From: Polyangia bacterium | GTDB lineage: Bacteria; Myxococcota_A; Polyangia; JAAYKL01 | Reading direction: 5' to 3' | Assembly (NCBI GenBank): GCA_046484285.1 | Contig: JAWOBP010000186.1 | Coordinates: forward strand, 10,178 to 74,177 | Length of the DNA stretch: 64,000 nt | Shown here: one piece after another, positions 42,733-61,250 of the stretch | Layout: every line of letters begins with the position of its first letter | How positions within the stretch are numbered: position 1 is the first letter of the stretch | Notes under the pieces: model-generated | The model's database searches: none | The model's input: the letters and a program-made list of their open reading frames with translations, nothing else | What the model was told of the DNA's origin: nothing | Program-made: the position numbers and the translations under genes

Positions 42733-43080
42733 ATGAAGACTCAAAAGCTGTTCCTGTTTTCGTTGCTGATGATGCTGGCGGTCACCGCTGCCGCCTGCTC
42801 GGACGACGACGACGACGACGGTTCCGGTTCCGACGCGGACACCGACGCGGACACCGACGCGGACACCGACGCGGACACGGACGCGGACACGGACACCGAC
42901 ACGGACACCGACACGGACACCGACACCGACACGGACACGGACACCGACACCGACACGGACACGGACACCGACACCGATACGGACACGGACACCGACACGG
43001 ACACCGACACCGATACGGACACGGACACCGACACCGATACGGACACGGACACCGACACCGATGGCGACGCCGGACCGTAA
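42733..43080 (+). CDS. mini-lipoprotein consisting of lipobox plus (Asp-Thr/Asp-Ala)n tail only
   Basis: MKTQKLFLFSLLMMLAVTAAAC-SDDDDDDGSGS(DADT)n(DTDT)n...GDAGP; GGAGGT RBS; downstream of B12 riboswitch. Confidence 0.55.
   Translation: MKTQKLFLFSLLMMLAVTAAACSDDDDDDGSGSDADTDADTDADTDADTDADTDTDTDTDTDTDTDTDTDTDTDTDTDTDTDTDTDTDTDTDTDTDTDTDTDTDTDTDTDGDAGP
42826..43070. repeat. tandem 12-bp-periodic GACACC/GACGCG/GACACG repeat (coding for DT/DA repeats)
   Basis: Read directly; same repeat family recurs at 48780-48960, 54610-54800, 60240-60330. Confidence 0.8.
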
Positions 43081-43167
43081 CCCGGTAGCAGATTGATTGA
43101 TGAGACCGAAGGGCGAGGCGATCGATGATCGCCTCGCCTTTTTTCTCCCGGGCCGATTTCTCTAGCG

Positions 43168-44616
43168 ATGAGAATGCGCCGACTCGATAGCTTTCGCCTC
43201 GAGCTGAGGCGGCGAGGCTCGATGAAGACCGGTGCCCTGGTCTATCTCCACGAGCGGATGGAACCGGAGCGCGAGGCATTGTCGCAGCTTTGCGACGCCG
43301 CCTCGCTGGACGGGGAGGCGATCGTGCTGGCAACTCCGGATATCCACACCGGGTACGGAGTCCCGATCGGCTCGGTGATCGCCTCTCCGAGCCTGATCTC
43401 GCCGGCGGCCGTGGGTTACGACGTGAGCTGCGGAATGCGGCTCTTACTATCGCCGCTCGACGCCGTGGAAGCTCCGTTCGGAGAGATCTGCCGCGCGATC
43501 AGAGAAGAGCTGCCTCTGGGCGAGGGGAAACGCAACAGGCGTTTCGAGCTGAAAGAGCGCCAGCTGAAGCTGGTTCTGGAGCGGGGGGTGGCCGGGCTGG
43601 TCGACGTGACCGCGAATGACGCCGAGCTGGCGCGAGTGGTCGACCCGGAGAGGACCGGGATCGACAGGCGTCGAATCGAGGACGGCGGAGCGCTGGAAGG
43701 AGAGCCTGGCGAGGTGTCGTCGAGGGCCGTTCGGCGGGGGCTGTCCCAACTCGGCACGCTGGGGGGCGGCAATCATTTCGTCGAGATACAAAAAGTGGAG
43801 GAGCTGCCGGACGAGTCGGCCGGGCGAGCGCTGGGCATGCGCCAGGGACAGCTGGCGGTCATGATCCACACCGGATCGAGGGGGCTCGGTCACCAGGTCG
43901 CCGGCGATCACATGCGAATCGCGAACGACGCGGCCGGGCGCTACGGGATTCCCCGGCCCAGTCGCCAGCTCTCCTGCATGCCGGCCGACTCGCCGGAGGG
44001 GATCGCCTACCTCGGCGCGATGCGGGCCGCCGCCAACTTCGCCTCGGCCAACAGGCAGGTGATAGCCGAGATCGTGCGCGGTGCTTTCGCGCGGGTCCTG
44101 GAGAGCCGGGCCGGGCTGAGCACGGTCTACGACGTCTCGCACAACGTGGCCAAGCGCGAGAAGCACGGCGGGCGGTGGTTGTACGTGCATCGCAAGGGGG
44201 CGACCCGCGCCTTTCCGCCGGCACGGATGCGCGGATCGGACTTCGCGCGAATTGGACAGCCGGTGCTCGTGCCCGGGTCGATGGGCACGGCGAGCTACGT
44301 GCTGCTTCCCGGCGAGCGGGTCGACGAGTCGCTGTGCTCGGTCAACCACGGCGCGGGCCGAGCGATGAGCAGAACGGCGGCGGCGGGCAAGATTCGCAGG
44401 CGCGATGGCAAGGTGATCCGTCCGGGAGCGATTTCGCAGAGCCGTTTTCGAGAGTCGATGCGCGGTGTTTACTTGGAATGCGAGGACCGGCGAGCGATAG
44501 TGGAGGAGGCGCCGGATGCCTACAAGGACATCGACTTGGTGGTCGAGACCGTCGAGGGCGCCGGGCTGGGAAGAGCCGTGGCGCGGCTGGTGCCGTTGGG
44601 AGTGTTGAAGGGCTGA
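43168..44616 (+). CDS. rtcB: RNA-splicing ligase RtcB
   Basis: 482 aa; ATPDIHTGYGVPIGSV, GGGNHFVEIQ, SVNHGAGR motifs; start may be internal Met at 43222. Confidence 0.85.
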   Translation: MRMRRLDSFRLELRRRGSMKTGALVYLHERMEPEREALSQLCDAASLDGEAIVLATPDIHTGYGVPIGSVIASPSLISPAAVGYDVSCGMRLLLSPLDAVEAPFGEICRAIREELPLGEGKRNRRFELKERQLKLVLERGVAGLVDVTANDAELARVVDPERTGIDRRRIEDGGALEGEPGEVSSRAVRRGLSQLGTLGGGNHFVEIQKVEELPDESAGRALGMRQGQLAVMIHTGSRGLGHQVAGDHMRIANDAAGRYGIPRPSRQLSCMPADSPEGIAYLGAMRAAANFASANRQVIAEIVRGAFARVLESRAGLSTVYDVSHNVAKREKHGGRWLYVHRKGATRAFPPARMRGSDFARIGQPVLVPGSMGTASYVLLPGERVDESLCSVNHGAGRAMSRTAAAGKIRRRDGKVIRPGAISQSRFRESMRGVYLECEDRRAIVEEAPDAYKDIDLVVETVEGAGLGRAVARLVPLGVLKG

Positions 44617-45491
44617 TGAAGACCTACATCGAGTGTGTTCCGTGCATCGTCGAGCAGGCCGTGGAGGCCCCGCGTCGTTTCACCGGGGACGAGCAGCTGA
44701 TCGAGCGCGTCGTCAAGCGGACGATCGCCGAGCTGGTCGATTTCGATTTCGCGCGTTCTCCTCCCGAGATGGGCGGGGTGCTGCACCGCATCATGTCCGA
44801 CGAGTTGGGCGACGAGGATCCCTACCTGGAAGACAAGCGGCGCGCCAACCGCCTGGCGATCGAGCTGCTGCCCGAGCTGAGGAGGTTCGTCGAGAGCGCC
44901 GACGATCCGTTCGAGGCCGCGGTGCGGTTGGCGATCGCCGGGAACGTGATCGACTTCGGCGCTCCGGGCGGGCTGCGCGACGATCGGATCGAGTTGGCCT
45001 TCCGCGACACGGCCGACGTTTTGCTGCGCGGGGACGGCGCGGCCGGCGTGGAGCGTCTGCGCCGGCAGGCCGCGCGGGCCGAGAGGATCTTGTTCCTGGC
45101 CGACAACGCCGGCGAGATCGTGGTCGACCGTCTCTTGATCGAGCGGTTTCCCCGGGGCAGCGTGACCGTCGTGGTGCGCTCGGGGCCTGCGATCAACGAC
45201 GCGTTGCTCGAGGATGCCGAGCAGGCGGGGTTGGGCGAGGTGGCCGAGGTGATCGAGAGCGGAGCGGATCTGCCGGGGACTCCGCTTGCGTTCTGCTCCG
45301 CGGATCTGCGCGAGAGGTTCGCCGCGGCCGATTTGGTCGTCTCCAAGGGGCAGGGCAACTACGAGACCCTCTCGGACGAGCAGCGCCGGATGTTCTTCCT
45401 GCTGCGCGCCAAGTGCCCGGTGGTCGCAGGTCACATGAGCTGCGAGGTCGGGGATTACGCGGTGGCGGAGTTTCCCAGGAGCGAAAGATGA
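44616..45491 (+). CDS. DUF89 / ARMT1-like (damage-control phosphatase family) protein
   Basis: MKTYIECVPCIVEQ..., LADNAGEIVVDRLL, VSKGQGNYETL motifs typical of DUF89; TGATG overlap with rtcB stop. Confidence 0.6.
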   Translation: MKTYIECVPCIVEQAVEAPRRFTGDEQLIERVVKRTIAELVDFDFARSPPEMGGVLHRIMSDELGDEDPYLEDKRRANRLAIELLPELRRFVESADDPFEAAVRLAIAGNVIDFGAPGGLRDDRIELAFRDTADVLLRGDGAAGVERLRRQAARAERILFLADNAGEIVVDRLLIERFPRGSVTVVVRSGPAINDALLEDAEQAGLGEVAEVIESGADLPGTPLAFCSADLRERFAAADLVVSKGQGNYETLSDEQRRMFFLLRAKCPVVAGHMSCEVGDYAVAEFPRSER

Positions 45492-45655
45492 GCGGAATCT
45501 TCAACGTGATCGTGGGCTTGATCATGCTGGTGGGAGGGCTGTCGGGCAGGCTGGCTTTCTTCGGCACGAGCAGCTCCGGGATCCTGGCCGCGGTCGGAGT
45601 GGTGGTCACCGGGGTGGGGGTCTACCAGCTGGTCAAGAGTCGCCGGGGGCGATAG
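45488..45655 (+). CDS. small two-TM membrane protein, hypothetical
   Basis: MSGIFNVIVGLIMLVGGLSGRLAFFGTSSSGILAAVGVVVTGVGVYQLVKSRRGR; ATGA overlap with previous gene. Confidence 0.35.
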   Translation: MSGIFNVIVGLIMLVGGLSGRLAFFGTSSSGILAAVGVVVTGVGVYQLVKSRRGR

Positions 45656-45710
45656 ACTCGCCACCCCGAGCCCTGATGGCCTTACTACTGCTGCTGATCT
45701 TACCCCCTAA

Positions 45711-46562
45711 ACGGATCGCGTTGGCGCCTGGCTGGCCAAGAGCCTCGAGGAGCACGGCGACGGGATCGAGCTTTTCGCCTTCATCTTCCTGTCCAACCAC
45801 TTCCACCTGCTGCTGCGCGACACCAAGGGGCAGCTGGCCGAGTTCATGTACTACTTCCAGCTCAACCTGGCCAAGTCGGTCAACGAGCTGCTGGGCCGCC
45901 GCGGCCACTTCTTCGCTCGAAAGTACGACGCGGCGCCGGTGCTGACCGACGAGGACTTCGAGAACCGCTGGGCCTACATCGCGACCAACGCGGTCAAGGC
46001 CGGGCTGGTGGAGCGGGCGTCGTCGGGGCCGTTCTTCTCCTCGCTCGGGATGGCGCTCGACGGCAAGCCGCGCTCTTTCGAGTGGACGGACCGCACCGCG
46101 CTTCACAACCGGAGCCGTCGGGGCCAGCGGGTTGGTCGCGAGGAGGTGACGAGGAGGTACTCGCTCGAGCTGACGGTGCCGCCGCAGTGGCGCAAGCTGA
46201 GCAAGCGAGCGAGGCGGGAGCGGATGAAGGGTCTGGTCAGGGCCAACGAGGTACGCTACGGCCGCGAGCGTCGCGCCGAGGGTCGGAGCGTTCTGGGAGC
46301 GCGGCGAGTGTTGGAGCAGTCGCCGCTGATGCGACCGCGCAATCCTTCTCGCAGCCCGCGGGTCAAGGTGTTCTGCCGCGACCGGGAGCTGGAGGCAGCG
46401 CATCTTGAGATGGAGAAACAGACGGCGGGCCTGTACCGCGAGGAGCTCGGAGCGTTTCTCAAAGCGGCGCTGATGGGCAGGCGCACGCCTGCAGACTGGC
46501 CGCCGGGTACGTACCCGCCGTCCTCGCTGTGGCCGGTGGGCGCCCCGGCGGCGCCCTGCTGA
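45711..46562 (+). mobile_element. IS200/IS605-like (Y1, HuH) transposase gene, 5'-truncated remnant
   Basis: Frame opens right after an in-frame TAA (45708-45710) with no start codon; contains HuH motif LSNHFHLLL and conserved downstream region but lacks the usual approx 50-aa N-terminal part. Confidence 0.55.
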
Positions 46563-46849
46563 GGAGAGCTCGAATCAAGGCCGAGGCAAAAAGAAATGGC
46601 GCAGGCGAGCTGGATCGCAAGCGGCCGGCGCACCGCTGCATTTATTAGAACGACTATTGGCGAGAACGTCCGCCGGCCGGTCGGCGCGGCGAGTGAGTCT
46701 CGAGTGACCACCGGGCAAAAAGGGTCAAAAGGAGCCGACTCTGCCCACCTTGGAGTCGAACGCGCGCTGCAGAAACGTCAAACCGTCGGGAGAGATTGAG
46801 GTCAACGCCAAAAACAACAACGATTACAATTTGATCCGTGTAGTCCTTG

Positions 46850-46873
46850 TTCAAATTTGGGTTCAAATTTGGG
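46850..46873. repeat. tandem 12-bp repeat GTTCAAATTTGG x2 in AT-rich intergenic region
   Basis: Read directly, approx 45 nt upstream of the 46916 lipoprotein gene. Confidence 0.7.
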
Positions 46874-46915
46874 GCGCCAGCGCGCGGGGGCCAATTTTGT
46901 GCTAGGCTGCCGGCC

Positions 46916-47644: not shown

Positions 47645-47724
47645 CGGCCTGAATCGCGGTTTGTAGATGCTGCCGGCGGTGTTGTGCGATTTCTGTGCGC
47701 GGCCGACGCCGGGGCGCTCGCGGC

Positions 47725-49041
47725 TCAGTCGACCGGCACGGAGGGACAGCCGAACTTGGCCGAGATCGTGTCGACGAAGCCGCCCTGGATTTCGGCGCAG
47801 GCATCCTCGCAGAAGGTGATCTCGGTGTGCTCTGCGTTGGCCCAGGTCCAGCCCGTGCCCACCAGGCAGTCCGGGTCGTAGGGGACCACGTCGCCGTCGA
47901 AGTAGAAATTGACGTTGTCCGGGTCGGCCGAGGCGTCGGGCTCGTCGAGTTCGAAGGTGCAGCTGATGATGCTGGCCGCGATCGTGTCCAGCGCGTTCTC
48001 CAGCGCGGCCTGGTCGAGCGCCTCGACGAACGAGGTGAACTGGGTGCCGCCCGCGGCCGCGATCGCGTTCAGCGCGGTCTCGTCGGCGTTCTCGGTGTAG
48101 CCGATCACCATCGTCTTGATCCCCGCGGTCAGCAGCGACTCGGTGCGATCGCTGAGCTCGTCGACCCAGCTGTTGGAACAGCTGTAGTTGCCCGAGGGGC
48201 CGCAGCAGTCGTCGCCGTCGGCCACGACCAGCAGGTAGGGATCGCCGGGCTGGGCGTCGGTGGTGAAGTTGGGCGCGTAGCTCGGATCGTCGAGCAGCTT
48301 GTCCATCTCCATCACCAGCGGATCCCCCGAGCCGGACTGCGGCGCGTGGGTGTCGAGCCAGCCGGAGATCGCGCTCTCCTGGCCCGCGGCGGTGTCGAAC
48401 CAGACCGGGTTGTCCACCGAGCAGCTCTGCGAGTACCAGTCGTCCGGGTAGGAGTCGAAGCCGAACAGGAAGTTGTCGGCGTAGTCGACCAGCCAGCTCT
48501 GGATCGCGGCTCTGGCGTGGTCGTACTTGGACGACGGGATCACCATCGAGCCGGACATGTCGAGCAGGATCATCAGCTTGACCGGTACGTACTCGATCGC
48601 GAAATCCTGCTCCGAGCAGACGGTGTCGGTGTCCGGCGTGACGTCGATCTCGTCGGTCTGCCCGTCGCAGTCGTCGTCCTCGCCGTTGTAGGGATCTTCC
48701 TGGGCGCCGGGGTGTTGATCCGGATCGTCGTCGTCGCAGTCGAAGTCGGCGCACCACCAGTCGCCGTCCTGGTCCACGCAATCCGGATCCGAGTCGCTGT
48801 CCGCGTCGGAATCGGAATCAGCGTCGGAGTCGGCGTCGGAGTCTCCGTCCGCGTCGGTATCTGAATCGGAATCAGCGTCGGAATCGGCGTCCGAGTCTCC
48901 GTCCGCGTCCGTGTCGGCATCGGAATCGGAATCGGCGTCCGCGTCCGTGTCCGTATCGGCGGGCTGATAGTCCGCGTCGCCGTTTTCGCAGGCGGCCGCG
49001 AGCAGAGCAACAGAGAACATCACCATTGGTCGTGAGATCAT
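47725..49041 (-). CDS. VWA-domain lipoprotein with Asp-rich repeat linker and Cys/Asp-rich (calcium-binding-like) module
   Basis: Lipobox LLAAAC; (DSDA/DTDA)n linker; DQDGDWW.. Cys-Asp module; MIDAS-like [11 protein letters not shown]. Confidence 0.7.
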
Positions 49042-49107: not shown

Positions 49108-50865
49108 TCAGTCCGGGGCGAACTGGAAGGTGTGCACGGGACGCTGCTCGAGCTCGGCCAGCGCCGCGGTCGTCTCCGGCGGGAACGCCACGCGCAGGAT
49201 CACGTTGCGGTCGTTCTCGGTTCCCGAGCCGTTCTCGCCGCTGCCGTCCTGTACGTCGTAGAGTCCATAGAAGCGACCTCCCGCCAGCACGGGCATCTCG
49301 CCGGGAATCTGGTAGTCGAGCATCGTGCAGTAGATGCTCCCGGTGCCGTCGCGCTCGTCCACCAGCTCCACGAGCCGCGTCTGCTGCGGCCAGATTGCGG
49401 TGGCCGAGGTCTCGATTTCCCAAAAGCCGTGCTCCGGGGGCAGACCTTCGGGAGCAGGGTGGGGCGTTACGCGGTTGAAGTGCGAGTGGCCTCCTACGTG
49501 CGCCACCACGCCCGGGTGGTCGATCAGCATCGCCGACAGCGCCTGGCGCTCGTCCTGGTCGTCGATGCTGTTCAAGCTGTGGTGAGCGGCGACGATCACC
49601 GGCCTGCCTTGGTTCTCCGCCGCGTCCAGCGCGGCCAGCAGCCACTCCTGGCGGGGCGCGTCGAACGTGCCCCACTGGCCGGAGTCGGAGACCGTGTCCA
49701 TCACGATCAGCGCAAGGGGCGAGCCCGGGAACGGTTCCTCTACCACGTAGCTCCCCCAGCCGGTGTCCAGATTCGACTGCTGGTAGCCGTGCCCGACCGG
49801 AGAGGTGATCGTGTCGAAGAAGACCGAGGTCCAGTCGTAGCGCCCGAAGAACGCGCGGTCGTAGTCCGGGATCACCTCGCTGCCGTCGAAGTACGCCTTG
49901 GGAGGCATGTAGCAGCGCTCGGGAATGAGCGACTCGGTCTGGTACCAGGGCTGCTCGAGGCAGACCGCGGTCACCGCGTCGTTCAGCCAGGACAGCGTCT
50001 GGTTCTTGTTGGCCGAGTCCCCGGCCGGATCGGCCAGCATCCACGAGACCAGCGGTCCATTGCCCAGCTCGAGCAGATCGTGGTTGCCGGGAGTCACGTA
50101 CCAGGGGATGTCCGCGGGGAATCCCTGGGCGATGAAGGGGTCGTGCGGGTCGTTGCCCGCGCCCGGGATCGGGTCGTCGTCGTCCCCGGAATCTGGATCG
50201 ACGATGCCCCCTTCGAACACGGTGTAGAACCATTCCAGCTCGTTGTGCTGGATGTTGTCCACCATGTCGCCGGTCAGCAGCGCGAAGTCGAAGCGGTGGT
50301 GGGCCGAGAACAGCCCGGCGGTGCGGACCGCCGCCTCGAGGAGTTGGGCGGTCAGGTTCTCCTGGTAGCGGTAGGAGGACTCGTAGAGCATGTCGCCGTG
50401 GATCAGGCGCGCGGGCGACTCCTCGTCGATGATCTGCGAGTCGGTGACGTGCCAGACGAACGCCAGCGACGACGGATCGCCGAGCGGATCGGCCTCGCTC
50501 TCACCGACGTCCAGGTCGTCGCGCTGCACGAACGGCTCGCCGGCTCCGATCTCGGTCAGGCCCCACTCGGAGCGATCCGGTCCTGCCAGGGGCTCGGCGG
50601 GCAGCAGCGGAAAGATCGTCTCTTCGAGAGTGGTGGGCGGACACGGAGGGAGCTCGCCGGTATCGGTGTCGGTTTCCGTGTCGGTCTCGCTCGCCGAGTC
50701 GCTCGAGGTGTCGCCGAAGGTGTCGCTGTCGAGCTGGGTGCCGGTCTCCGACGACGTGTCGTCCTCGGCAGAGCCCGACCCGCCCGATCCGCGGCAGCCG
50801 GAGATCGCCGTGATCGCGGCGAGAGAGAGAACGGCTGCGAGAGGGGAGGATGACGCTTTGGACAT
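49108..50865 (-). CDS. calcineurin-like metallophosphoesterase lipoprotein
   Basis: Lipobox AITAISGC; GDMVDNIQHNELEWF, GNHD, GHSH metallophosphatase motifs; Asp/Ser/Thr-rich linker after lipobox. Confidence 0.75.
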   Translation of the reverse strand: MSKASSSPLAAVLSLAAITAISGCRGSGGSGSAEDDTSSETGTQLDSDTFGDTSSDSASETDTETDTDTGELPPCPPTTLEETIFPLLPAEPLAGPDRSEWGLTEIGAGEPFVQRDDLDVGESEADPLGDPSSLAFVWHVTDSQIIDEESPARLIHGDMLYESSYRYQENLTAQLLEAAVRTAGLFSAHHRFDFALLTGDMVDNIQHNELEWFYTVFEGGIVDPDSGDDDDPIPGAGNDPHDPFIAQGFPADIPWYVTPGNHDLLELGNGPLVSWMLADPAGDSANKNQTLSWLNDAVTAVCLEQPWYQTESLIPERCYMPPKAYFDGSEVIPDYDRAFFGRYDWTSVFFDTITSPVGHGYQQSNLDTGWGSYVVEEPFPGSPLALIVMDTVSDSGQWGTFDAPRQEWLLAALDAAENQGRPVIVAAHHSLNSIDDQDERQALSAMLIDHPGVVAHVGGHSHFNRVTPHPAPEGLPPEHGFWEIETSATAIWPQQTRLVELVDERDGTGSIYCTMLDYQIPGEMPVLAGGRFYGLYDVQDGSGENGSGTENDRNVILRVAFPPETTAALAELEQRPVHTFQFAPD

Positions 50866-51471: not shown

Positions 51472-53037
51472 TCAGGTTCCGGTCACCGGGTCGACCACGT
51501 AGCGCCTCAGCTCGTTGGTGCGGGGGTGGATCATGTGGATCGCGCAGGCCAGGCAGGGATCGAAGGAGCGCACCACGCGCACCACGTTGATCGGGTTGTC
51601 CGTGTCGGGCACCGGGATCCCGATCAGCGACTCCTCGTATTGCCCGCGCACCCCGGACTCGTCGCGCGGAGAGGCGTTCCAGGTGGAGGGCACCACCGCC
51701 TGGTAGCGCTTGGTCTTGCCGCCCTCGATCGTTATCCAGTGACCGAGCGCGCCGCGCGGAGCGTCGTAGAAGCCGGCTCCCTCGCCCTTGTCCGGCGGAT
51801 CCCAGTGCTGCGTGTCGTGGATTTCGAAGCCCTTCTTGCCCATCTGGGATTCGAGCTGGTCGAGCCAGCCCTGCATCGCCTCGACCAGCAGCAGGTTCTC
51901 GAAGGCGCGGCTGGCGTGGCGCGCCACCACGCCCGGCTTGGCGCCTTTCTCGACCAGGCCCATCAGGTCCTTGTTCTTCATCACCAGCATCCGTGCCAGG
52001 GGACCGACCTCCATCGGCTTTCCGTCGTAGCGCGGCGCCTTGACGAAGCTGTAGGCGTTCTCCCTGTCGCGGTTGACTTCCTGCGTTCCCCGCGAGGGGT
52101 GGACCGGGTCCGCCTCCTCGTACCAGGCGTGCTCCACCGACTCGGTGATCTTCTTCTGATCGAACTTCCCTATCTTGGCCAGATCGCCGGTGATCACGCC
52201 CGGAGTGAAGAACGGATCGCCGCCGTCCTTCTGGTCGAACGCTCCGTAGGCCAGGTAGTTGGGATGTCCCTTGCCGAAGCCACTTTTTGCCAGCCCGAAG
52301 AGCGGGCCGGTGCCCAGCGCCACGACGTCCTTGGCGTAGACGTCGCGGGTGAAGGCGGCCGCCTTTGCGAGCAGCTCGCGGAACTGCTTGATCCGATCCT
52401 TGGTCGGGAGCTGGGTCACGCCGCCGGGCACGATGCTCTGGTAGTGCGGTGCGCGCCCGCCGAAGATCGCGCCCATCTTCTTGCAGAGCATCTGCATCTC
52501 GAGTGCGTCGAGGTAGTGCTTGACCAGCGTGGTGACCGTCTCCGGGTCCTTGACGCAGTGCTCGTCGGGCTCGTAGCGCGGCGTGAGCGGATGGGTGTCC
52601 TTGCTCTCGACCAGCGCGACGATCTTTTTCTTGACCGCCTCGAGCTTGGGATCCTTGCCCTTGTAGTCGGCGACCGCCATCACGTCGATGTAGTCGAGCG
52701 CCGAGAGGTGGTAGAAGTGCAGGATGTGGTCGTAGAGGTACTGGGCGCCCATCACCAGGTTGCGCAGCAGGCGTCCACCGCTCGGCACCTCGGCGCCGAA
52801 CGCCGAGTCGAGCGCCAGCGAGGACGCCATCGTGTGCACGCTGAAGCAGACGCCGCAAAAGCGGCTGGTCACGTAGGCGGCGTCGCGAGGATCCTTGCCT
52901 TCCAGCATCTTCTCGAAGCCGCGGTACATCGTGCCACTGCTCCAGGCGTCCTTGACCTTGCCGTCCTCCACCTCGACCTCAATGCGGAGATGGCCCTCGA
53001 TGCGCGTTACGGGGTCGATTGCGATCTTCTGGCTCAT
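51472..53037 (-). CDS. [NiFe] hydrogenase large subunit
   Basis: N-terminal SRFCGVCFSVH (RxCGxC) and C-terminal DPCLACAIH nickel-binding motifs; ATGA overlap with small subunit. Confidence 0.9.
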   Translation of the reverse strand: MSQKIAIDPVTRIEGHLRIEVEVEDGKVKDAWSSGTMYRGFEKMLEGKDPRDAAYVTSRFCGVCFSVHTMASSLALDSAFGAEVPSGGRLLRNLVMGAQYLYDHILHFYHLSALDYIDVMAVADYKGKDPKLEAVKKKIVALVESKDTHPLTPRYEPDEHCVKDPETVTTLVKHYLDALEMQMLCKKMGAIFGGRAPHYQSIVPGGVTQLPTKDRIKQFRELLAKAAAFTRDVYAKDVVALGTGPLFGLAKSGFGKGHPNYLAYGAFDQKDGGDPFFTPGVITGDLAKIGKFDQKKITESVEHAWYEEADPVHPSRGTQEVNRDRENAYSFVKAPRYDGKPMEVGPLARMLVMKNKDLMGLVEKGAKPGVVARHASRAFENLLLVEAMQGWLDQLESQMGKKGFEIHDTQHWDPPDKGEGAGFYDAPRGALGHWITIEGGKTKRYQAVVPSTWNASPRDESGVRGQYEESLIGIPVPDTDNPINVVRVVRSFDPCLACAIHMIHPRTNELRRYVVDPVTGT

Positions 53038-54050
53038 GCCGCACTCTCCTTCTTGTTGTTGATGAGATGAAGGTTATTCGCGTACAGCGGCGAGTGTTTC
53101 TCGTAGAAGGTCGGCTCGGCGCATCCCTGGCACGGAGAGCCGCACTCGATGCAGTAGTTGACGCCCCCGTTGTACTTCCTGGTTGGGCAGTCCGAGTAGG
53201 TCTCGCCTCCCTTGCAGCCCTTCTCGGCCAGGCACCACTCGGCCTGCTTGGGGTCGTTCCAGTCTTGCAGGTAGTTGCCCTCGTCGTAGTGCTTCTTGCG
53301 CTCGCACTGGTCGTGGATCGTCTTGGCGTAGAACATCTTGGGCCGGCCGTGCTCGTCCAGCGGCGGCGCCTTTTCGTTGGTCAGGTAGTAGACCAGGGTC
53401 TGCACCAGGTGATCGTGGTGTGCCGGGCACATCGGCAGGTTGATCACCGGCTTGTCCTTCACCATCTGGTTCACGCCCATTCCGCGGCTCGGCGTGGCGC
53501 CCGGAATGCCGCCGTAGGTCGCGCAGGCTCCGAGGGCCACGATCGCCGAGGCCTGCTCGGCGCACTCGAGCACGATCTTCTCGAAGGGCTTGCCGCCCAC
53601 CGTGCAGAAGCGGTCGTCGGCGCCGGGGATCGATCCCTCGACCACCAGGATGTAGCCGCCCTCGGCCAGCGTGTTTTCCAGCGCCTTCTCGCTGACGTGA
53701 CCGGAGGCGGCCATCACCGCCTCGTGGTAGCGAAGCGAGATCTTGTCCAGCAGGATCTCGGCGATCGGCGGGTCCTCGGCATTGAGGAACGAGATGCTGC
53801 AACCCGCGCAGTCCTGCCCCTGGAGCCAGATCACCGGCGGCTTGCCCGCGGCCTTCTCCAGCTTCTCGGCCACCTTCTCGGCGCTCGGGCCTTTCTTCTT
53901 CTCGTCGCCCGGCGCGCCCTCATCGTCGCCTCCGCAACCGACTAGCGCCAGCGATCCGGCCAGCCCGCCGCAGTAGTAGAGGAAGTCCCGCCGCGAGACA
54001 GAGCCGAAGACCAGCTTTTCACCGTCGTGCTCTTTTTTCTTGCGCCCCAT
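53034..54050 (-). CDS. [NiFe] hydrogenase small subunit with Tat signal peptide
   Basis: SRRDFLYYCGGLAGSLALVGC twin-arginine leader; FeS-cluster Cys ligands (GCSISF..., CIECGSPCQGC). Confidence 0.85.
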   Translation of the reverse strand: MGRKKKEHDGEKLVFGSVSRRDFLYYCGGLAGSLALVGCGGDDEGAPGDEKKKGPSAEKVAEKLEKAAGKPPVIWLQGQDCAGCSISFLNAEDPPIAEILLDKISLRYHEAVMAASGHVSEKALENTLAEGGYILVVEGSIPGADDRFCTVGGKPFEKIVLECAEQASAIVALGACATYGGIPGATPSRGMGVNQMVKDKPVINLPMCPAHHDHLVQTLVYYLTNEKAPPLDEHGRPKMFYAKTIHDQCERKKHYDEGNYLQDWNDPKQAEWCLAEKGCKGGETYSDCPTRKYNGGVNYCIECGSPCQGCAEPTFYEKHSPLYANNLHLINNKKESAA

Positions 54051-54219: not shown

Positions 54220-54900
54220 TTACATCGGCATGTTCATGTTGAAGTCGATGCTGACCCCGGAGACATCGTTTCCGTCGTAGGTGAACTCCGGGCACTGGCC
54301 GGTGCCGAAGGCGACCGGGTCGCCCTGAGCCGGGCCGTCCGTGCTGCAGTCTCCGCCGGCCTCCTGCAGGAAGCCCGAAACCACGTAGGCCTCGTCCACG
54401 GTCAGCGCCTGCATGACGATGAACTCCATGTCGAACGGCTCGGGACCGCCTCCGGACAGGTCGAAGCCGGTCTCCTGGCCGCCGGCGAAGGTGGTGATCT
54501 GTCCCATGTTGGACATCGCGGGGCACTCGTCCGAGATCGCCAGGCAGAGAGTGCCGACTCCGTCTCCGCCGCTCGGGATGTCGGCGGACTGCGAGACCGT
54601 GCCCGAGACGTTGATTGTATCGAGCCAGGTTCCGGTCTCGGTGTCGGAGTCCGCGTCGGTGTCTGTGTCGGCGTCGGAGTCCGCGTCTGTGTCGGCGTCG
54701 GAGTCCGCGTCGGTGTCCGCATCGGCGTCGGTGTCGGCGTCGGTATCGGCGTCCGAGTCCGAGTCCGAGTCCGAGTCGGTGTCCGAGTCGGTGTCCGCGT
54801 CGGTACCGCCGCCGCTGTCGTCGTCGCCGCAGGTCGCGGTCCCGAGGGCGCACAGCGCCACGATTGCCAGCAGGGTGATCGATTTGGAGAGAATCTTCAT
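54220..54900 (-). CDS. lipoprotein with (Asp-Thr/Asp-Ser/Asp-Ala)n linker and C-terminal Cys-containing domain of unknown function
   Basis: [32 protein letters not shown](TDAD..)n; strong RBS GGAAGGAGGCGGAAG before ATG. Confidence 0.55.
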
Positions 54901-54983
54901 CTTCCGCCTCCTTCCATGGTGTTCACGGCCATTGTGAGTCTTTTTGATGAGAAGTACACCTTGAGACAAAAAAGGACGGACGA

Positions 54984-56045
54984 TCAGTGGGTATGGCAGA
55001 TGCGGCACATCTTGTGCGAGGTGCGCTCGCCGGCCGGAACGGGCGGGGTCCAGCCCGGAGGGTGCGGGTCGACGCCGCCGGTGCTGTGGCAGCGCAGACA
55101 GTTGGAGGCCGGGCCCTGGTCGTGGCAGGCGGCGCACTCGTTGATCCTGCGGCGCGCGGCCCTGCTGTGCGAGTCGGCCGCGCCCGGCGTCATCCAGCTC
55201 GGCGGATGCGGGTTGCGTCGGCCGAGCCGGCCGCCGACGCCGTGCTGCTCGTGGCACGAGGAGCACGACGATCTGCCGTGGCACTTCATGCAGCTCGTAT
55301 CGCCGGTCCGCGCCTCGAGCGAGTGGCGCGTCATCCAGTCGCCCTGGTGCATGAAGCTGCGGTCCACGCGCTCTGGAAAGCGCAGCGAGGGACGCTGGGT
55401 CATCGTGCGGGCGTGGCAATCGGCGCAGTAGGCCTGGTCGTGGCAGACCGCGCAGGTCTGCTCGCCGCCGGCCGCGGCCCTGGCGCCGTGGCGATCGAAG
55501 AAGCCCTTCTCGTGCGAGTAGATCTCGCCCGACGGCACGCGCTGGTAGAGGTCGAGGCGGTGGTGGCAAAGCTTGCAGTCGCCGGAATCGAGATCATCCT
55601 GGTGGCAGGTATTGCACTCGACGTGGCCGGGCAGCAGGCGGTTCTCCGGGGTAACGTCCACCGCGTGGGCGGCGTCGCCGTGGCAGTCGGCGCAGTCTCC
55701 CGAGCGCTCCTGGTGGAGCTGGTGCGAGAAGACCAGGTGCGTGGGCTCGAGCCGATCGTAGCTGTCGGGAGCGTCGGTGTTGGTGTGGCAGGTGCCGCAT
55801 TCCTCGGCGCTCTCCACGTCGTGGCAGTCCGCGCAGCCGGACATCGCGGGCAGCGCCTCGGCCTCGCGATCGACGTCCTCGGCGATCCCGGCGTGGCAGT
55901 AGTCGCAGTCGACCCCCATCTCGGAGTGCACGTGGTGGGAGAACAGGATCGTGTCCGGGGCGTCGCTGGTGGCCGCCGAGCACGCCACCACCGCGGCCGT
56001 GACGGCCGAGAGCAGCAGTCCCTTGTTGCGCGAGAGTCTTGTCAT
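54984..56045 (-). CDS. multihaem cytochrome c lipoprotein (13 CxxCH motifs)
   Basis: [22 protein letters not shown] lipobox; CDYCH, CADCH, CGTCH, CADCH, CNTCH, CKLCH, CAVCH, CADCH, CMKCH, CSSCH, CAACH, CLRCH, CRICH. Confidence 0.75.
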
Positions 56046-57574
56046 TGCTCGTACCCCCGCTCGACGAAGTTCACGTCGAAGTTGTAGCTGAGCTTTAGCA
56101 TTCCGCGGACCTCGTGCTCGGCGTAGGGAGTGATGCCGGCCGCCACCGAGCCGCCGGTCTCGATGGTCCCGTTGCCGTAGAACAGCCCCACGTCGCCCAG
56201 AAAGCCCAGGTCGGTGTTTTCGATCTTCTGGTCGTAGAGATCGAGATAGGCGTTGGCCGCTGCCCGCAGGCCGGGCAGGGCGATCGGCACGATCGCTCCC
56301 AGCCGCAGCGAGTGGGCACCCAGCTCGTCCTGTCCCAGGCGGTGGTAGTCGAGCCGCACCAGCCCGTCGTTCCTTTCTCCGTAGCGCAGCAGCGCGCCCG
56401 CTTCGATGTCGTAGCCCAGCTCGGTCTCGGCGCCGTACCCGCTGGAGCTCCCAGCGTCGAAGCGCTCCTCGACGTAGCTGTAGAAACGATGGTGATATCC
56501 GGCCGAGAAGCTCAGCCAGGCGAGCGGGTCGACCCGCACGGCGCCGCCCACCGAGTCGTACTCCTCCATCGAAAACACAGAGAAGATTGACATCTTGGAC
56601 AGGTAGAGGGTCGGATCCGCGTGCCGGTAGTCTGCGGCGATCGAGACCATCTCGTGAGGATAGAGGTCGACCGCGAAGTTCGCCTCCTGGAGGCGCTTGG
56701 CCACCAGGTCGAGCGCCGCGTTGCCGCTGGCGCCCAGCCAGCTGAGCGGAGTCACGTCGAGGTCGACGCCGAGCAGCTGCCTGTCTATTTCGTCGAGCTC
56801 GGTGACGTGCAGCATCGAGACGCCGGCCGAGATCTTGCCTGTCATGCGGTAGAAGACGCGGCCGCCGACCGCGTAGTCGCCCTCGCGCTCCCAGTCGCTC
56901 AGGCCTCCGCCGAAGTCGCCGTAGCTCGGGTTGGCCGGCTGCTCGCGGTACCACTCGGGTCCGAGGTAGGGAGAGACGACCAGCCCGCCGTGCGCCTCGA
57001 TCCCGAGGTGGATCGGCGATTCGTACGAGGCGTAGAGGCCGTCGATGTGCAATCCGCGCGTGGCGCCGGTGTAGATCTGCTGGCGACCCAGCCGGACGTC
57101 GGCCCCGTAGTCCCTGAACTGCACGTAGAGGTAGGTCGGGTCGGCGACCGCCCGCTGATCGAAATACACGTCGGCCAGATCGACTCCGGCCCACCCCTGG
57201 AAGTGGACCGACAGGCCCGGGTGACCCAGCTCGTCTGCGCGCAGCTGAACGGTCTCGTAGAAGGGGAAGACCTTCATCGACCGCACGCCGTAGGCGCCGC
57301 CGCCCAGGTTGCGCATCCGGGCGCGCCGGGTGAAGAACATCTCCGAGCGCAGGCTGCCCGAGACCATCGGCCTGGGAGCGTCCGGGTCGTAGGGCTCGGG
57401 CTCGACCTCGGGAGGATCGGAAGCCGGGTCGACCTCGTCGCCGCCGTCTTCGCCTTCGGCGTCGCCGGTCTCTTCCGTCGCCGCCTCTTCTGTCTCTTCC
57501 TCGTCTTCCGCCTGGGCAAAGACCGAGCCCGGGGACGCGACGAGCAGGCCGATGGAAATCAAAACGGCGCGCAC
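56042..57574 (-). CDS. outer-membrane beta-barrel (porin-like) protein with acidic N-terminal extension
   Basis: Signal peptide MRAVLISIGLLVASPGSVFAQA; Glu/Asp-rich approx 60 aa then beta-strand-rich body ending ...NFVERGYEQ; 4-nt overlap with cytochrome gene. Confidence 0.6.
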   Translation of the reverse strand: MRAVLISIGLLVASPGSVFAQAEDEEETEEAATEETGDAEGEDGGDEVDPASDPPEVEPEPYDPDAPRPMVSGSLRSEMFFTRRARMRNLGGGAYGVRSMKVFPFYETVQLRADELGHPGLSVHFQGWAGVDLADVYFDQRAVADPTYLYVQFRDYGADVRLGRQQIYTGATRGLHIDGLYASYESPIHLGIEAHGGLVVSPYLGPEWYREQPANPSYGDFGGGLSDWEREGDYAVGGRVFYRMTGKISAGVSMLHVTELDEIDRQLLGVDLDVTPLSWLGASGNAALDLVAKRLQEANFAVDLYPHEMVSIAADYRHADPTLYLSKMSIFSVFSMEEYDSVGGAVRVDPLAWLSFSAGYHHRFYSYVEERFDAGSSSGYGAETELGYDIEAGALLRYGERNDGLVRLDYHRLGQDELGAHSLRLGAIVPIALPGLRAAANAYLDLYDQKIENTDLGFLGDVGLFYGNGTIETGGSVAAGITPYAEHEVRGMLKLSYNFDVNFVERGYEQ

Positions 57575-57575
57575 G

Positions 57576-58145
57576 TCACACTCCTCCGTCGCCGGACGCG
57601 AGGTCCACGTTGCCGTTGAGGTGGATCTCGGAGCTCAGTCCGCCGTCCAGGTAGGCCGAGGCGTGGCAGCTCGCGCAAGCCGAGTCGTCGGGGTGCGGAT
57701 CGAGCGGGGGCAGCCCGTGGCAGTCGCCGCACGAGACCTGCTCGGTGTCGTCCCAGCGGGGCGCCGGGTTGCTTCCGCCGCTCAGCGTCCCGCCGTGGCA
57801 GTAGACGTTCACGCAGCTAGCACCGTCGAAGTACGGCTCGGCTCCGCCGGCCGTGGCCAGGCCGCCGTCGGCGAACACGACGTCGACCACCGCGTCGAGG
57901 TGATCCTGGGAGAACCACTCACCGGGAATCCGGTGGCAGTCCTCGCAGGTCATGCCCGGAGCGCCGAACGGGCCGCCGGTGCTCATGTGGAGCTGATGGG
58001 CTCCGGAATCGGGGTTCATCGAGTGGCACATCTCGCAACCGTCTCCGCCCGCGTCGCCCTCGTCGTCCCTGACTTGCAGGCAGGAAGTCGAGGCAATGCA
58101 TATCAATGCGATCGGTACCAAGCGCCATTGCTTTTCGGGGATCAT
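57576..58145 (-). CDS. secreted/lipoprotein multihaem cytochrome c (about 5 haem sites)
   Basis: MIPEKQWRLVPIALICIASTSC leader; CEMCH, CEDCH, CHGG, CGDCH, CASCH. Confidence 0.6.
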   Translation of the reverse strand: MIPEKQWRLVPIALICIASTSCLQVRDDEGDAGGDGCEMCHSMNPDSGAHQLHMSTGGPFGAPGMTCEDCHRIPGEWFSQDHLDAVVDVVFADGGLATAGGAEPYFDGASCVNVYCHGGTLSGGSNPAPRWDDTEQVSCGDCHGLPPLDPHPDDSACASCHASAYLDGGLSSEIHLNGNVDLASGDGGV

Positions 58146-58441
58146 CGGCCGGGACCTCCTGGGGCTTCGACCCGCGTGTAAACGCCGGTCTCTGACTGAT
58201 TTCTCCAGAGCGTCAACGCATGTTTTTTTTGTAACGGAGCACCGAACCGGGGCGAGTGTCGCCAATCCAGGCCACAAAATCAAGAGCTTGCTGACAAAAA
58301 GGGCAATATCAAACTGACTGAACGAAAACTAAAGATACAAATTCAATGTATACCATAAAAGTGCTGAATAGCCCATTCTATATTACACCAAACTACTGCT
58401 ATATAAGTTGTTGTCAATTGGCCAGTTTTTTACTTGAATTG

Positions 58442-58480
58442 ATAGCCTAGCGGCTATAAAAAAGGCGTGTCTTGTGACAC
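58442..58480. promoter_or_regulatory. two adjacent palindromes (ATAGCC-N4-GGCTAT and GTGTC-N4-GACAC) in AT-rich divergent control region
   Basis: Read directly, 40-80 nt upstream of the 58522 cytochrome gene; surrounding 58290-58520 is conspicuously AT-rich. Confidence 0.3.
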
Positions 58481-58521
58481 GGGTAACAATTCCGGTATCG
58501 ACTCGATTCTCGGAGATCGAA

Positions 58522-60069
58522 ATGAATGGAGCAGGGAAATTGAAAAGAGTCTCGTTGCATTTGGTATTTTGGGCCTCGAACGCCTTTTTTCTGGCGGCCG
58601 TGCTCGCGATCGGTTGCGACGGCTCCTCGGGCGCCTCGAGCTCGGCCGACGCGGGCGACACGGACAGCCAGACGGACGGGGCCGACACCGAAGCGGCCGG
58701 CCCGTCAACCTGCCTCGAGTGTCACCTCGATGAAGATGCCCTGATCGCCAGCCTGGAGGCGGATCCGCTGCCCGAAGAGGAAAAGGAGGAGGAGGAATCC
58801 ACCGGCGAAGGGTGAGGCGGAGAGTTGCCTCCGTTGGAGGCATGGGAGAAGGTCCTGGTCTCCGAGGATTTCCTCGCGGATCGCCACTTCGCGGAGTTCT
58901 TCTTTTCGGACTGCACTTGGTGCCACGGCGGAGATGATTCCGCCGAGGCGCGCGCCGCGGCGCACGAGGGAATGGATCCCTACCCCTCGCTGGCCGACAG
59001 CGAGATGTGCGGCGGAGCCTGCCACGGCGACGAAACCGAGATGTTCCACACCGGCCTGCACTACGACAACCGCGGGATAGTCCACCCCGAGCGCAGCCAG
59101 ATCGCGCTGCGCGCCGGAGAGGAGACGCTGCCGGCGATCCAGGAGGCGCTCGGCAACCACTGCGCCGACTGTCACTCCAAGGCCTGCGGAGACTGCCACA
59201 TCACGCGGCCTCGCTACTCCGAGGGCGGGTTCGTCAAGGGGCATGTCTTCTATTCGACCCCCAAGGCGACGCTCAACTGCACCGGCTGTCACGGCAGCCG
59301 GGTCGAGAAGGAGATGCTGGCCAAGGGCGGGTTGGATTTCGAAGGCGAGGTGGTCGAGACGAAGTACGACGTGCACTGGAACCCGAACGCGATGTCGTGC
59401 GACGTGTGCCACGGGGGCCACGACGCCGACCTGGCCGAGGTCTACCACCGCTACGACCGGCCCGACGCCCCGCGCTGCGAGGACTGCCACCAGCAGCAGA
59501 TCACCGACGCGGGCAACCAGATGCACGCCGTCCACGCGCTGGCCGGAGGCGAGGCCCCGATGCTGCAGTGCCAGGTCTGCCACTCGCAGCCCTACAACAA
59601 CTGCCGCGGGTGCCACCTGAAGCAGTCCGAGCAGGGCAGCTGCTATTACGATCTCGACAAGTCGTGGTTCGATTTCAAGATAGGCAAAAATCCGCTCGAG
59701 AGCGCAGAGCGGCCGTACGACTACGTGGTGTTGCGCCACGTTCCGGTGGACCGCGACACCTTCTCGCACTACGGCGACGATCTGCTGACGAGGTTCGACG
59801 ATCTGCCCACGTGGAAGTACGCCACGCCGCACAACGTGATCAAGGAGATCGATGTCGACGGCGAGCCTCAGCCGCCGCCCCAGGCCAGGGGATGCAACAG
59901 CTGTCACGGGCACCCGGAGCTGTTCCTCACCGCCGAGGTGGTCGAGCAGGTGGATCCCGAAGAGCTCGAGGCCAACTCCGAGGTTATCGTGGACTCGATT
60001 CCCGGGCCACTCGAGGGAGACGGAGGGCCGGGGCCCGGTCCGGACGGCGGTCCGGACGGCGGGGTGTAG
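58522..60069 (+). CDS. multihaem cytochrome c lipoprotein (11 CxxCH) interrupted by a single in-frame TGA at 58813-58815
   Basis: ORF1 58522-58815 (signal + lipobox LAIGC, DS/DT linker, CLECH) and ORF2 58825-60069 (10 CxxCH, no signal peptide, TTG 'start') are in the same frame separated only by TGA; stable hairpin TGCCTCCgttGGAGGCA 11 nt downstream of the TGA. Confidence 0.6.
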
Positions 60070-60143
60070 CAGCGCGGTGAAGAAGAGGTGATTCGTTTTT
60101 TCAATTGCCGGCCGCGGCCGGCCAAGAAAAGGAGAGAGAAGAC

Positions 60144-61250
60144 ATGAAGAAGAGCTTTTTGTTGTGCTTGCTGGCTGTGGGACTGCTCGCGTTTCCACTG
60201 TTGACGGCGGGATGTGGCGACGATGACGACGGCGGATCCGGAGACGCGGACACGGACGCGGACACCGACGCGGACACGGACGCGGACACCGACGCGGACA
60301 CCGACGCGGACACTGATTCCGACTCCGACACCGACGGCGACGCCGACCTGCTGGGCGATGTGTTCGGTCCGCTCGACGGATATGTGGACGACGAAGAGAT
60401 CAAACCGGTGATCGCTCCCGATTCGATTTACAATGACGTGGTCGTGGGCGGCAGCGAGGACTACCAGCTGATCGACGTGCGCCCGGCGGACCATTTCTCC
60501 GGCGGCCACATCGAGGGCGCGGTCAACTTGCCGTGGGGAGAGGACTGGGCCACGAGCACGGTGCTCGACGAGATCGACGACTCGCTGGCGCAGGTCATCA
60601 TCTGTCACACCGGCCACCGGGCAAGCTACCTGACCGCCTATCTGCGCCAGCTCGGATACGACGCCTACGCGATGAAGTTCGGCATGATGGGCTGGACCGG
60701 CGACCTGGACGTGATCGGGCTCGACGCCACCTACTGCAGCAGCTCGGCTCTGCCCGGCGACTACGCCACGGTCAGCGAGGCGACCGAGGCTACGACCGGA
60801 GATCTGCCCACGATCGAGTCCGACAACAGCGGCGACGACCTGATCATGGAGCTGGCCGGAGCCTACTTCGGCCTCGATGGCCAGCCCCCGGTGGTCAAGC
60901 CCCCCGACATCTACAACGACGTGATCGTGGGCGGCTCCGAGGACTACTACATGGTCGACGTGCGCAAGGCCGAGCACTACGAGGCCGACCACATCGAGGG
61001 AGCGGTGAGCATTCCTTACGGCACGTGGAACGACGAGATCGTCCTCGAGTCCATTCCAATGGACAAGAAGATCGTGACGATCTGCTACACGGGCCACACC
61101 GCCAGCCAGATGGCGATGATCCTGAGCGAGGTGGGCTACGAGGCCTACGCGATGGCCTACTCGATGATGGGATGGCACTCGGACACCGAGATCATCGGCA
61201 GCGAGGGCATCTGCTCCTGCGACGCCGATTACCCGGTGGTGACCGACTGA
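60144..61250 (+). CDS. tandem-rhodanese (sulfurtransferase-like) lipoprotein with (DADT)n linker
   Basis: Lipobox LLTAGC; two rhodanese modules with active-site loops CHTGHRA and CYTGHTA. Confidence 0.7.
   Translation: MKKSFLLCLLAVGLLAFPLLTAGCGDDDDGGSGDADTDADTDADTDADTDADTDADTDSDSDTDGDADLLGDVFGPLDGYVDDEEIKPVIAPDSIYNDVVVGGSEDYQLIDVRPADHFSGGHIEGAVNLPWGEDWATSTVLDEIDDSLAQVIICHTGHRASYLTAYLRQLGYDAYAMKFGMMGWTGDLDVIGLDATYCSSSALPGDYATVSEATEATTGDLPTIESDNSGDDLIMELAGAYFGLDGQPPVVKPPDIYNDVIVGGSEDYYMVDVRKAEHYEADHIEGAVSIPYGTWNDEIVLESIPMDKKIVTICYTGHTASQMAMILSEVGYEAYAMAYSMMGWHSDTEIIGSEGICSCDADYPVVTD

Follow-up and report, generated by a model that had tools for sequence, protein, structure and literature searches.

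The window examined here is a stretch of 64,000 nucleotides (contig JAWOBP010000186.1, positions 10,178 to 74,177) from the metagenome-assembled genome (MAG) of a "Polyangia bacterium", whose window proteins carry the NCBI locus tags R6V85_* and accessions MFO80736xx. Its GC content is ~66 %, and that at third codon positions (GC3) is near 0.9. An earlier note on this DNA had pointed to at least six lipoproteins in which the lipobox cysteine is followed by runs of Asp alternating with a small residue X, hereafter Asp-X tracts. A six-frame scan of the 64 kb for (D[TASG])n of four or more units found exactly four such tracts, and 200 codon shuffles of the window produced none:

42832-43071, + strand, tract T1, 80 residues
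48790-48957, - strand, tract T2, 56 residues
54640-54801, - strand, tract T3, 54 residues
60243-60344, + strand, tract T4, 34 residues

These four arrays were also recovered by Tandem Repeats Finder (TRF), at 66-94 % matches and with periods between 6 and 54 nucleotides (nt). Each tract lies in an open reading frame (ORF) of high GC3, behind a hydrophobic N-terminus or signal peptide that ends in Cys. The four tract genes, and two further genes that had been placed in the same group, are as follows:

42733..43080, + strand, 'linker-only' lipoprotein of 115 residues, called from the ORF and its sequence
47725..49041, - strand, VWA-like lipoprotein; Cys18 starts at 48990, (D[TASG])28 tract at 48790-48957
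49108..50865, - strand, metallophosphoesterase lipoprotein; Cys24 starts at 50796, Pfam PF00149 and TIGR03767
54220..54900, - strand, lipoprotein of 226 residues, function unassigned; Cys24 at 54829-54831
58522..60069, + strand, multihaem cytochrome lipoprotein; Cys starts at 58615, cytochrome confirmed by Pfam
60144..61250, + strand, double-rhodanese lipoprotein; Cys24 at 60213-60215, two copies of Pfam PF00581

The grouping of six lipoproteins with Asp-X linkers therefore held for four genes, but those at 49108 and 58522 have acidic linkers only. The metallophosphoesterase linker (~50650-50793) is degenerate, acidic and rich in Ser, Thr and Gly, with a short imperfect repeat detected by TRF (50658-50727) and a run of ETDTETDTDT, and that of the cytochrome (58618-58710) is non-repetitive, with abundant acidic residues, Ser and Gly. 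Lipoboxes were judged by sequence pattern, and the endings seen after hydrophobic N-termini were AAAC, LAAAC, ISGC, AIGC and TAGC. The Cys codons of the four tract genes start at 42796, 48990 (-), 54831 (-) and 60213. Three of the four lipoboxes are canonical; that of the 54220 gene is not, reading GTATC with Thr at -1 where its orthologs have GTAAC. The residues behind Cys are S-D6, G-D3, G-D4 and E-N-G-D, so that poly-Asp directly after Cys, which had been claimed for all six proteins, is present in three only (CSDDDDDD, CGDDD and CGDDDD), and the VWA-like gene has other residues. Lys at position +2, the mark of inner-membrane lipoproteins in M. xanthus (PMC3222651), occurs in none of the six window lipoproteins.

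The 42733 gene, which has GGAGG 7 nt upstream of its ATG, encodes MKTQKLFLFSLLMMLAVTAAA, Cys22 (42796-42798), Ser, Asp6 (42802-42819), GSGS, a (DADT)5(DT)n tract at 42832-43071, and finally DGDAGP before the stop. The protein has no domain, since only these six residues remain past the tract. In the 54220 gene, whose start has been corrected to 54900, Cys is followed by GDDDSGGGT, a (D[TAS])27 tract (54640-54801) and a very acidic C-terminal domain of 139 residues. The rhodanese lipoprotein runs from PLLTAG and Cys through GDDDDGGSG into a (DADT)n-type tract (60243-60344), and in the VWA-like lipoprotein the tract is followed first by a MopE-like motif rich in Cys and further on by a VWA-type domain. 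These positions bear out the view of the tracts as linkers from the lipobox Cys to the functional domain. Among the domains named earlier, the metallophosphoesterase, cytochrome and rhodanese were recovered with Pfam, but no VWA call was obtained by Pfam on the window protein; its homologs match PF00092 or PF11617, and its own match to the CglB model is weak (30 bits, cut-off 200). The MopE-like motif (48640-48786, - strand, ending CDGQTDE) is missing from the closest VWA-like homolog, P0120 (89 % identity), indicating gain or loss of a module in the N-terminal region. When the four tract proteins were looked up by exact sequence, using several possible start codons, the protein collection gave no entry.

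At the DNA level, all four tracts are written as GAY-NCN, a pattern forced by the 66 % GC genome, in which Asp is GAC and Thr, Ala and Ser are ACS, GCS and TCS. The codon mix differs from tract to tract: T1 consists of GAC-ACC and GAC-ACG, T2 is rich in GAT-TCC, T3 mixes GCS, ACC and TCG, and T4 is built as (GACGCGGACACS)n. With a separate unit and codon mix in each tract, the proposal that all are encoded by one shared nucleotide repeat holds only trivially, in that GAY-NCN runs throughout. The longest exact string common to two tracts is 35 nt (T1/T4), and other pairs share 15-18 nt. Perfect arrays extend to 27 nt at most for the 6-nt unit and to 47 nt for the 12-nt unit. Periods of 24-54 nt are perfect across 59-77 nt, and this indicates past block duplications.

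We then searched GTDB genomes, one for each species, for DNA that encodes (DADT)3D; this gave at least 117 stretches. The 117 matches listed bear the name Myxococcota, Myxococcales, Polyangia or Deltaproteobacteria in 72 cases and a vague label of the Proteobacteria type in 33. The remaining 12 belong to other phyla, in which the tract mostly does not lie behind a lipobox; matches from high-GC Actinomycetota are few and not behind a lipobox. These matches contain 168 tracts, of which 83 lie within 45 residues past a lipobox Cys and 19 more near an N-terminus, the latter mostly representing lipoboxes missed by the search pattern; 52 are internal, between domains or near C-termini. A stricter re-scan of the same matches yielded 72 ORFs with signal peptide, Cys and tract, in which a non-repetitive spacer with a median of 15 residues (range 8-57) precedes a tract with a median of 42 residues (range 16-146). 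Gly is the commonest residue at +2 in this set and Asp is enriched from +3 to +8, with no fixed motif.

The same picture emerged from protein searches. A phmmer search with the rhodanese lipoprotein retrieved 36 rhodanese homologs and 72 unrelated proteins. The closest full-length rhodanese homologs are Firmicutes lipoproteins with ordinary, non-acidic linkers. What the unrelated proteins share with the query is limited to the signal peptide, a start of the CGDDDD type and the tract. Among them are FGE-sulfatase, beta-lactamase-fold, CotH, FG-GAP and cytochrome proteins as well as many unknowns. Where named, these proteins come from Polyangia, Deltaproteobacteria or Myxococcota. The mini-lipoprotein encoded at 42733 gave 684 matches via signal peptide, Cys and tract. 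An (Asp-X)n tract 8-57 residues past the lipobox Cys is thus common in Myxococcota MAGs, in unrelated families. This agrees with the suggestion in the earlier note of a linker typical of the lineage, but not with a local tether 'system', since tracts are spread genome- and lineage-wide on dozens of unrelated domains and also occur between domains. Such a spread across genomes and families indicates a lineage-wide linker style rather than a local system of the 18-kb stretch that holds the six genes. The linker type is not described in the open literature as covered by literal-string and keyword searches, in which the repeat strings gave oligonucleotide papers only.

Comparison of close relatives showed how the tracts change. 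We compared the full-length members of ten clusters of tract lipoproteins (>=90 % identity), and found that seven vary in length and three are invariant. Indels within the tracts are all multiples of two residues (2, 4, 8, 12, 30 or 38); five of the seven variable clusters show a change of two residues, and cluster 5 shows changes of 8-38. Two pairs of otherwise identical proteins, P0040/P0197 (one DA unit) and P0190/P0193, are a single two-residue unit apart. Outside the tracts, the only internal indels are gaps of one and two residues, which affect the pre-tract spacer in two clusters, and a 40-column N-terminal difference shown by P0192 within its cluster alignment. No indel that we observed disrupts the ORF, each being a multiple of 3 nt in length. 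Window genes behave alike: the metallophosphoesterase gene differs from its ortholog by one 6-nt indel in the degenerate repeat, and the tract of the 54220 gene spans 54 residues in the window and 50 in each of two orthologs, L002 and L120. The 6-nt length steps predicted between close relatives are therefore seen in the clusters, the 54220 tract and the metallophosphoesterase repeat.

The sequence of the tracts also changes fast. L002 and L120 come from two near-identical strains, and show 16 differences over the 150 nt of the tract and 2 over the 417 nt that encode the C-terminal domain. The tract has thus changed ~20-fold more than the rest of the gene, at equal length, and the changes affect none of the Asp codons and 12 of the 25 X codons. 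Similarly, a VWA-like ortholog (75 % identical) has a tract of ~54 residues, compared with 56 in the window, with different X residues. Across the VWA-lipoprotein family as a whole, the distance from Cys to a conserved VCDEQDF motif ranges from ~20 to >100 residues, and the linker may be non-repetitive, (D[SAGT])n or poly-Asp/Glu-Gly.

We used AlphaFold2, with an alignment of 31 sequences, to predict the structure of the rhodanese lipoprotein; the remaining tracts share its tract composition. Residues 25-63, from Cys to the end of the tract, have a predicted local distance difference test (pLDDT) score below 50 and no secondary structure, and the two rhodanese domains have pLDDT ~90.

Taken together, these results suggest that the tracts are probably disordered, polyanionic tethers or stalks of lipoproteins, a variant of a known principle, that are produced and remodelled by in-frame slippage. 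Devoid of hydrophobic residues and very strongly negative in charge, such a chain would stay unfolded, extended, soluble and non-adhesive, and could hold its domain some nanometres off the membrane. It would also provide the disordered stretch of more than 20 residues needed for Lol-type sorting of outer-membrane lipoproteins. The GAC-NCN DNA probably expands, contracts and reshuffles by in-frame slippage or unequal exchange, in 6-nt units and in blocks of 12-54 nt. Nearly any small residue (Thr, Ala, Ser or Gly) is accepted at the X position, so that the tract drifts quickly, with the alternating-Asp pattern and the rough length persisting despite that drift.

The acidity of these proteins is not limited to the tracts. 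Even outside them, Lys and Arg make up only 1-4 % and the isoelectric point (pI) is ~4 in the products of 12086-13762 (+), 47725-49041 (-), 54220-54900 (-) and 60144-61250 (+). The cytoplasmic proteins of the window have ordinary pI values, only exported ones being extreme, and this excludes a halophilic 'salt-in' proteome as the source of the acidity. In this comparison, made among the proteins of the window, acidic exported proteins would fit exposure to brine. A relative, GCA_964530995.1, shares ~90 % amino-acid identity with the window organism, and contigs near-identical to those of this relative were found in metagenomes of hypersaline, mineral-precipitating mats from Laguna Brava and Tebenquiche in the Salar de Atacama, among other samples.

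The linker-only gene is flanked by two regulatory features:

42387..42591, + strand, cobalamin riboswitch aptamer (Rfam RF00174, 96.5 bits against a gathering threshold of 31.5)
43109..43146, + strand, intrinsic terminator, a hairpin with a 16-bp stem (-33.4 kcal/mol, z = -5.3 relative to shuffled sequences) and a tail of U6

The riboswitch matches the model over its full length (1-189; E 8e-23) and ends 142 nt upstream of the ATG. In the folded leader, the region of the ribosome-binding site and start codon pairs with an upstream segment. The terminator was missed by a consensus terminator scan but is clear on RNA folding. With the riboswitch upstream and a strong terminator downstream, the gene looks like a monocistronic, B12-controlled unit. 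Judged from its sequence, the 115-residue product would be either a functional, B12-regulated polyanionic lipopeptide or a decayed remnant. Among the 120 phmmer matches listed, linker-only proteins are rare, nearly all having a small Cys-rich or other C-terminal domain, and the idea that linker-only lipoproteins form a conserved family is therefore unsupported. When JGI metagenome loci were sought via the neighbouring RtcB gene, the best relative was 64 % identical, and tract or riboswitch was found in none of 80 loci.

We also looked for the riboswitch at other tract loci. An Rfam scan of 72 of these (~490 kb) gave one cobalamin riboswitch, at locus L048, and nhmmer across all 117 tract loci gave none, ruling out a general link between the riboswitch and tract lipoproteins. 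At L048 (1-2601, - strand, Myxococcota MAG contig JAQXDW010000121.1), a cobalamin riboswitch of 122.7 bits is followed by a 685-residue ORF resembling TonB-dependent receptors, and the next gene encodes a lipoprotein that has both a His-rich spacer (CGDKGDTEEHEHDSHEA) and a (DADT)n tract, cut short by the contig edge.

A number of observations weigh against a simple tether. The taxonomic tallies come from at least 117 stretches and so describe a sample. Copy-number differences in seven of the ten clusters and in two window genes were seen between assemblies, and assembly error may account for part of them; short-read contigs (Logan and other) stop within the Asp-X tract at L121, L123, L124 and L048. 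Tracts therefore act as assembly break points and copy numbers in MAGs are uncertain, as may be that of the 240-nt T1, which exceeds a typical read length, if the window was assembled from short reads. Conservation of Asp could arise from turnover of repeat units alone, without selection. Two other window lipoproteins (Cys at 30218 and 46970) have long linkers rich in Lys, Pro, Ala and Glu, indicating that the acidic repeat is not the sole solution in this organism, and the repeat may instead mark a subclass of lipoproteins with its own destination. In addition, a pure spacer role leaves the riboswitch-controlled, linker-only protein unexplained. Directly seen in the data are the anatomy of the tracts, their spread over the lineage, their predicted disorder, the pattern of indels and the rapid change at X; lipidation, location, an extended conformation, a role in sorting or spacing, and an advantage in hypersaline, cation-rich mats are what we infer for these proteins.

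One alternative, which is compatible with a spacer, is that the tracts bind Ca2+, Mg2+ or Co2+/corrinoids at the cell surface, as a layer that buffers ions, prevents carbonate encrustation in mats or feeds an uptake system. About half of the tract residues are carboxylates, the relatives inhabit mineral-precipitating hypersaline mats, and the 115-residue protein, little more than anchor and tract, forms a separate unit from cobalamin riboswitch to strong terminator. The arrangement at L048, where riboswitch, receptor and a tract lipoprotein with a His-rich spacer follow one another, points in the same direction. However, the tracts contain no binding motif; Pfam at E <=10 returned no TSP_3 or other Ca-binding repeat, the only matches being sub-threshold, compositional ones to PARP and Mucin. 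The riboswitch is also found at just one of the 72 other tract loci, and the scarcity of linker-only proteins means that the mini-gene could be a remnant. We consider this alternative unlikely overall.

By analogy with Bacteroidota, the acidic cluster and tract could act as a sorting signal that sends a subclass of lipoproteins to the surface or to vesicles. The lipoprotein export signal (LES) of that phylum is K-(D/E)2 or Q-A-(D/E)2, a motif whose charge is essential (PMC5080379; PMC10319031). Consistent with such a signal, Asp3-6 starts at +3 in three window genes, and the enrichment of Asp from +3 to +8 holds across 72 independent tract lipoproteins. The globular parts of the tract-bearing proteins are poor in Lys and Arg, unlike the other window lipoproteins, and their cargoes (VWA adhesin-like, phosphoesterase, cytochrome and rhodanese) are plausible at the surface. 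Nevertheless, no strict motif from +2 to +9 is seen across the lineage, and the 52 of 168 tracts among the matches listed that lie between domains or near C-termini are unfit as N-terminal signals. The organism does not belong to the Bacteroidota, and the window proteins lack the LES context, in which Lys or Gln-Ala precedes the acidic pair, with no fixed motif in the 72 lineage members. A dedicated sorting signal is thus improbable. We give similarly little credence to a combined proposal, in which a distinct class of surface lipoproteins in Myxococcota would have the acidic segment as a functional module, serving either as an address that directs them across the outer membrane or as a polyanionic brush that captures cations or corrinoids. 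If it were true, the 115-residue lipoprotein would be a free-standing, B12-regulated form of that module.

The tracts could also be a neutral by-product of slippage-prone GAC-NCN DNA that expands in tolerant linkers, or an artefact of assembly, with no extra function. This would account for the free drift at X positions, for ortholog linkers that are sometimes short and non-repetitive, and for the breaking of short-read contigs in tracts, T1 being longer than a typical read. It does not easily explain why a single architecture, always in frame and at an unchanged topological position, is found across many independent assemblies, families and species, why tract length is kept between orthologs of 75-90 % identity, or why expansion is tied, among the matches listed, to one lineage and not to GC content in general. 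We therefore regard it as quite improbable. Least probable of all is the contingency-length locus proposed in the earlier note, in which copy number at hypermutable repeats is adaptively varied, for example in stalk length or for evasion of phages or predators: the 6-nt-step differences between otherwise identical or near-identical proteins, the ~20-fold hotspot in L002 and L120 and the recent block duplications would suit it, but the arrays are imperfect, broken by synonymous and non-synonymous variation, every change is in frame and precludes on/off switching, most changes are as small as two residues, those of cluster 5 being the larger ones, three of ten clusters are invariant, and orthologous lengths are alike (54/50/50 and 56 against ~54 residues).

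A further correction to the earlier reading concerns the cytochrome gene next to the rhodanese lipoprotein gene. It contains an in-frame TGA at 58813-58815, along with ten CxxCH motifs and one CxxxCH motif. In the TGA column, 7 of 12 N-terminally complete homologs have Cys, in a conserved G-[U/C]-G-G context, and the best matches are gene calls that start four residues past this column ('MPPLEA...'). Hairpins are found downstream of the UGA. From these sequence features, the TGA is probably a selenocysteine (Sec) codon. A Geobacter cytochrome, MccSep (gsu2937-2936, alias extKL), is a selenoprotein and five-haem polysulfide reductase with five conserved CxxCH motifs and a Sec/Cys site in the context PDGUPT (PMC13510729), and the reference list of that paper includes work on the rhodanese-like lipoprotein ExtH. 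The window cytochrome differs in having 11 haem motifs and the Sec context GEGUGG. Like MccSep, it has a supported Sec/Cys site, and the rhodanese lipoprotein encoded beside it recalls ExtH, whose gene presumably lies in the same Geobacter cluster as that of MccSep. A phmmer search of the PDB with the window cytochrome gave no match. Its membership of MccSep is unsupported, given the haem-motif count, the Sec context and the absence of a PDB match.

Other genes of the window are noted for completeness. The small subunit of a NiFe hydrogenase (53034-54050, - strand) has a twin-arginine motif (SRRDFL), after which come ALVGC, resembling a lipobox, and a linker rich in Lys and Glu, and from this sequence would be a lipoprotein exported by the twin-arginine pathway that has no Asp-X tract. 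Adjoining the hydrogenase operon, three adjacent genes (54984-58148, - strand) resemble a porin-cytochrome electron conduit; they encode a multihaem cytochrome lipoprotein of 353 residues, a protein of 510 residues that matches no family and is acidic in its N-terminal region, and a 190-residue cytochrome with the Geobacter CxxxxCH...CxxCH motif. A tRNA-Arg (anticodon GCG) called by ARAGORN at 22091-22186 (- strand) is 96 nt in length, unusually long for its type.

If the tether interpretation is correct, the order of lipobox, short spacer and (Asp-[Thr/Ala/Ser])n would be a simple signature by which a large class of lipoproteins exported by uncultured Myxococcota could be recognised. The tract would then offer a natural test of whether charge and disorder, and not sequence, matter in lipoprotein sorting or spacing, in a diderm beyond the Proteobacteria and Bacteroidota models. 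On the practical side, tracts break short-read assemblies, give spurious low-complexity 'homology' among unrelated proteins and make gene lengths in MAGs unreliable. The most curious items in the window are the linker-only lipoprotein under riboswitch control and the cytochrome with its probable selenocysteine.

Several known systems share features with the tracts. Procyclins of Trypanosoma brucei (EP/GPEET) are lipid-anchored surface proteins that consist almost wholly of an acidic dipeptide repeat; they are eukaryotic, with a C-terminal glycosylphosphatidylinositol anchor and Glu-Pro repeats. The 115-residue linker-only lipoprotein is like them in its anchor and acidic repeat, without homology, its match to procyclin PF05887 (20 bits, cut-off 100) being sub-threshold and compositional. 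The LES-bearing lipoproteins of Bacteroidota also have an acidic cluster a few residues from the lipidated Cys, in a subset of lipoproteins. There, however, a short motif is proven to be sufficient for surface exposure, whereas here we see a long repeat with no fixed motif, in another phylum.

A closer likeness in composition is to the Ser-Asp (SD) stalks of staphylococci (ClfA/B and SdrC/D/E), which likewise alternate Asp with a small residue between anchor and domain. The Ser-Asp regions of SdrC, SdrD, ClfA and ClfB were the only curated (NCBIfam) models touched by the tracts, with SD-region scores of 14-41 bits overall and 28-41 for the three longest tracts, compared with cut-offs of 999-2500. 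No tract protein matched the MSCRAMM models as a whole (A domain, B repeats and SD region), the match being to the SD part only, and neither an LPxTG motif nor a hydrophobic, positively charged C-terminal tail is present in any of the six window proteins. SdrC repeats have been shown experimentally to be disordered, highly extended and resistant to compaction through charge repulsion (PMC9881980), and SD repeats are glycosylated by SdgA/SdgB (PMC3794999). The SD stalks are C-terminal, near the LPXTG sortase anchor of a Gram-positive wall, and have Ser at X, whereas the window tracts are N-terminal, near the lipobox of a diderm, and have mainly Thr or Ala.

In position, the nearest counterparts are the lipoprotein linkers of E. 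coli. In about half of its outer-membrane lipoproteins the N-terminus forms a disordered linker longer than 22 residues, and both length and disorder of the linker are required for Lol trafficking (10.1101/2021.01.05.425367). Like the linkers of RcsF, NlpD and Pal described by El Rayes et al., the window tracts lie behind the lipidated Cys, exceed 22 residues, are predicted to be disordered and stand ahead of unrelated folded domains, and in both cases length and disorder would matter rather than the exact sequence. Unlike the non-repetitive, mixed E. coli linkers, the tracts are dipeptide repeats with ~50 % Asp, encoded by slippage-prone DNA, and reach 80 residues in the window and 146 in other genomes. 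The Asp-X tract is best seen as a compositional variant of this known principle rather than as a new mechanism.

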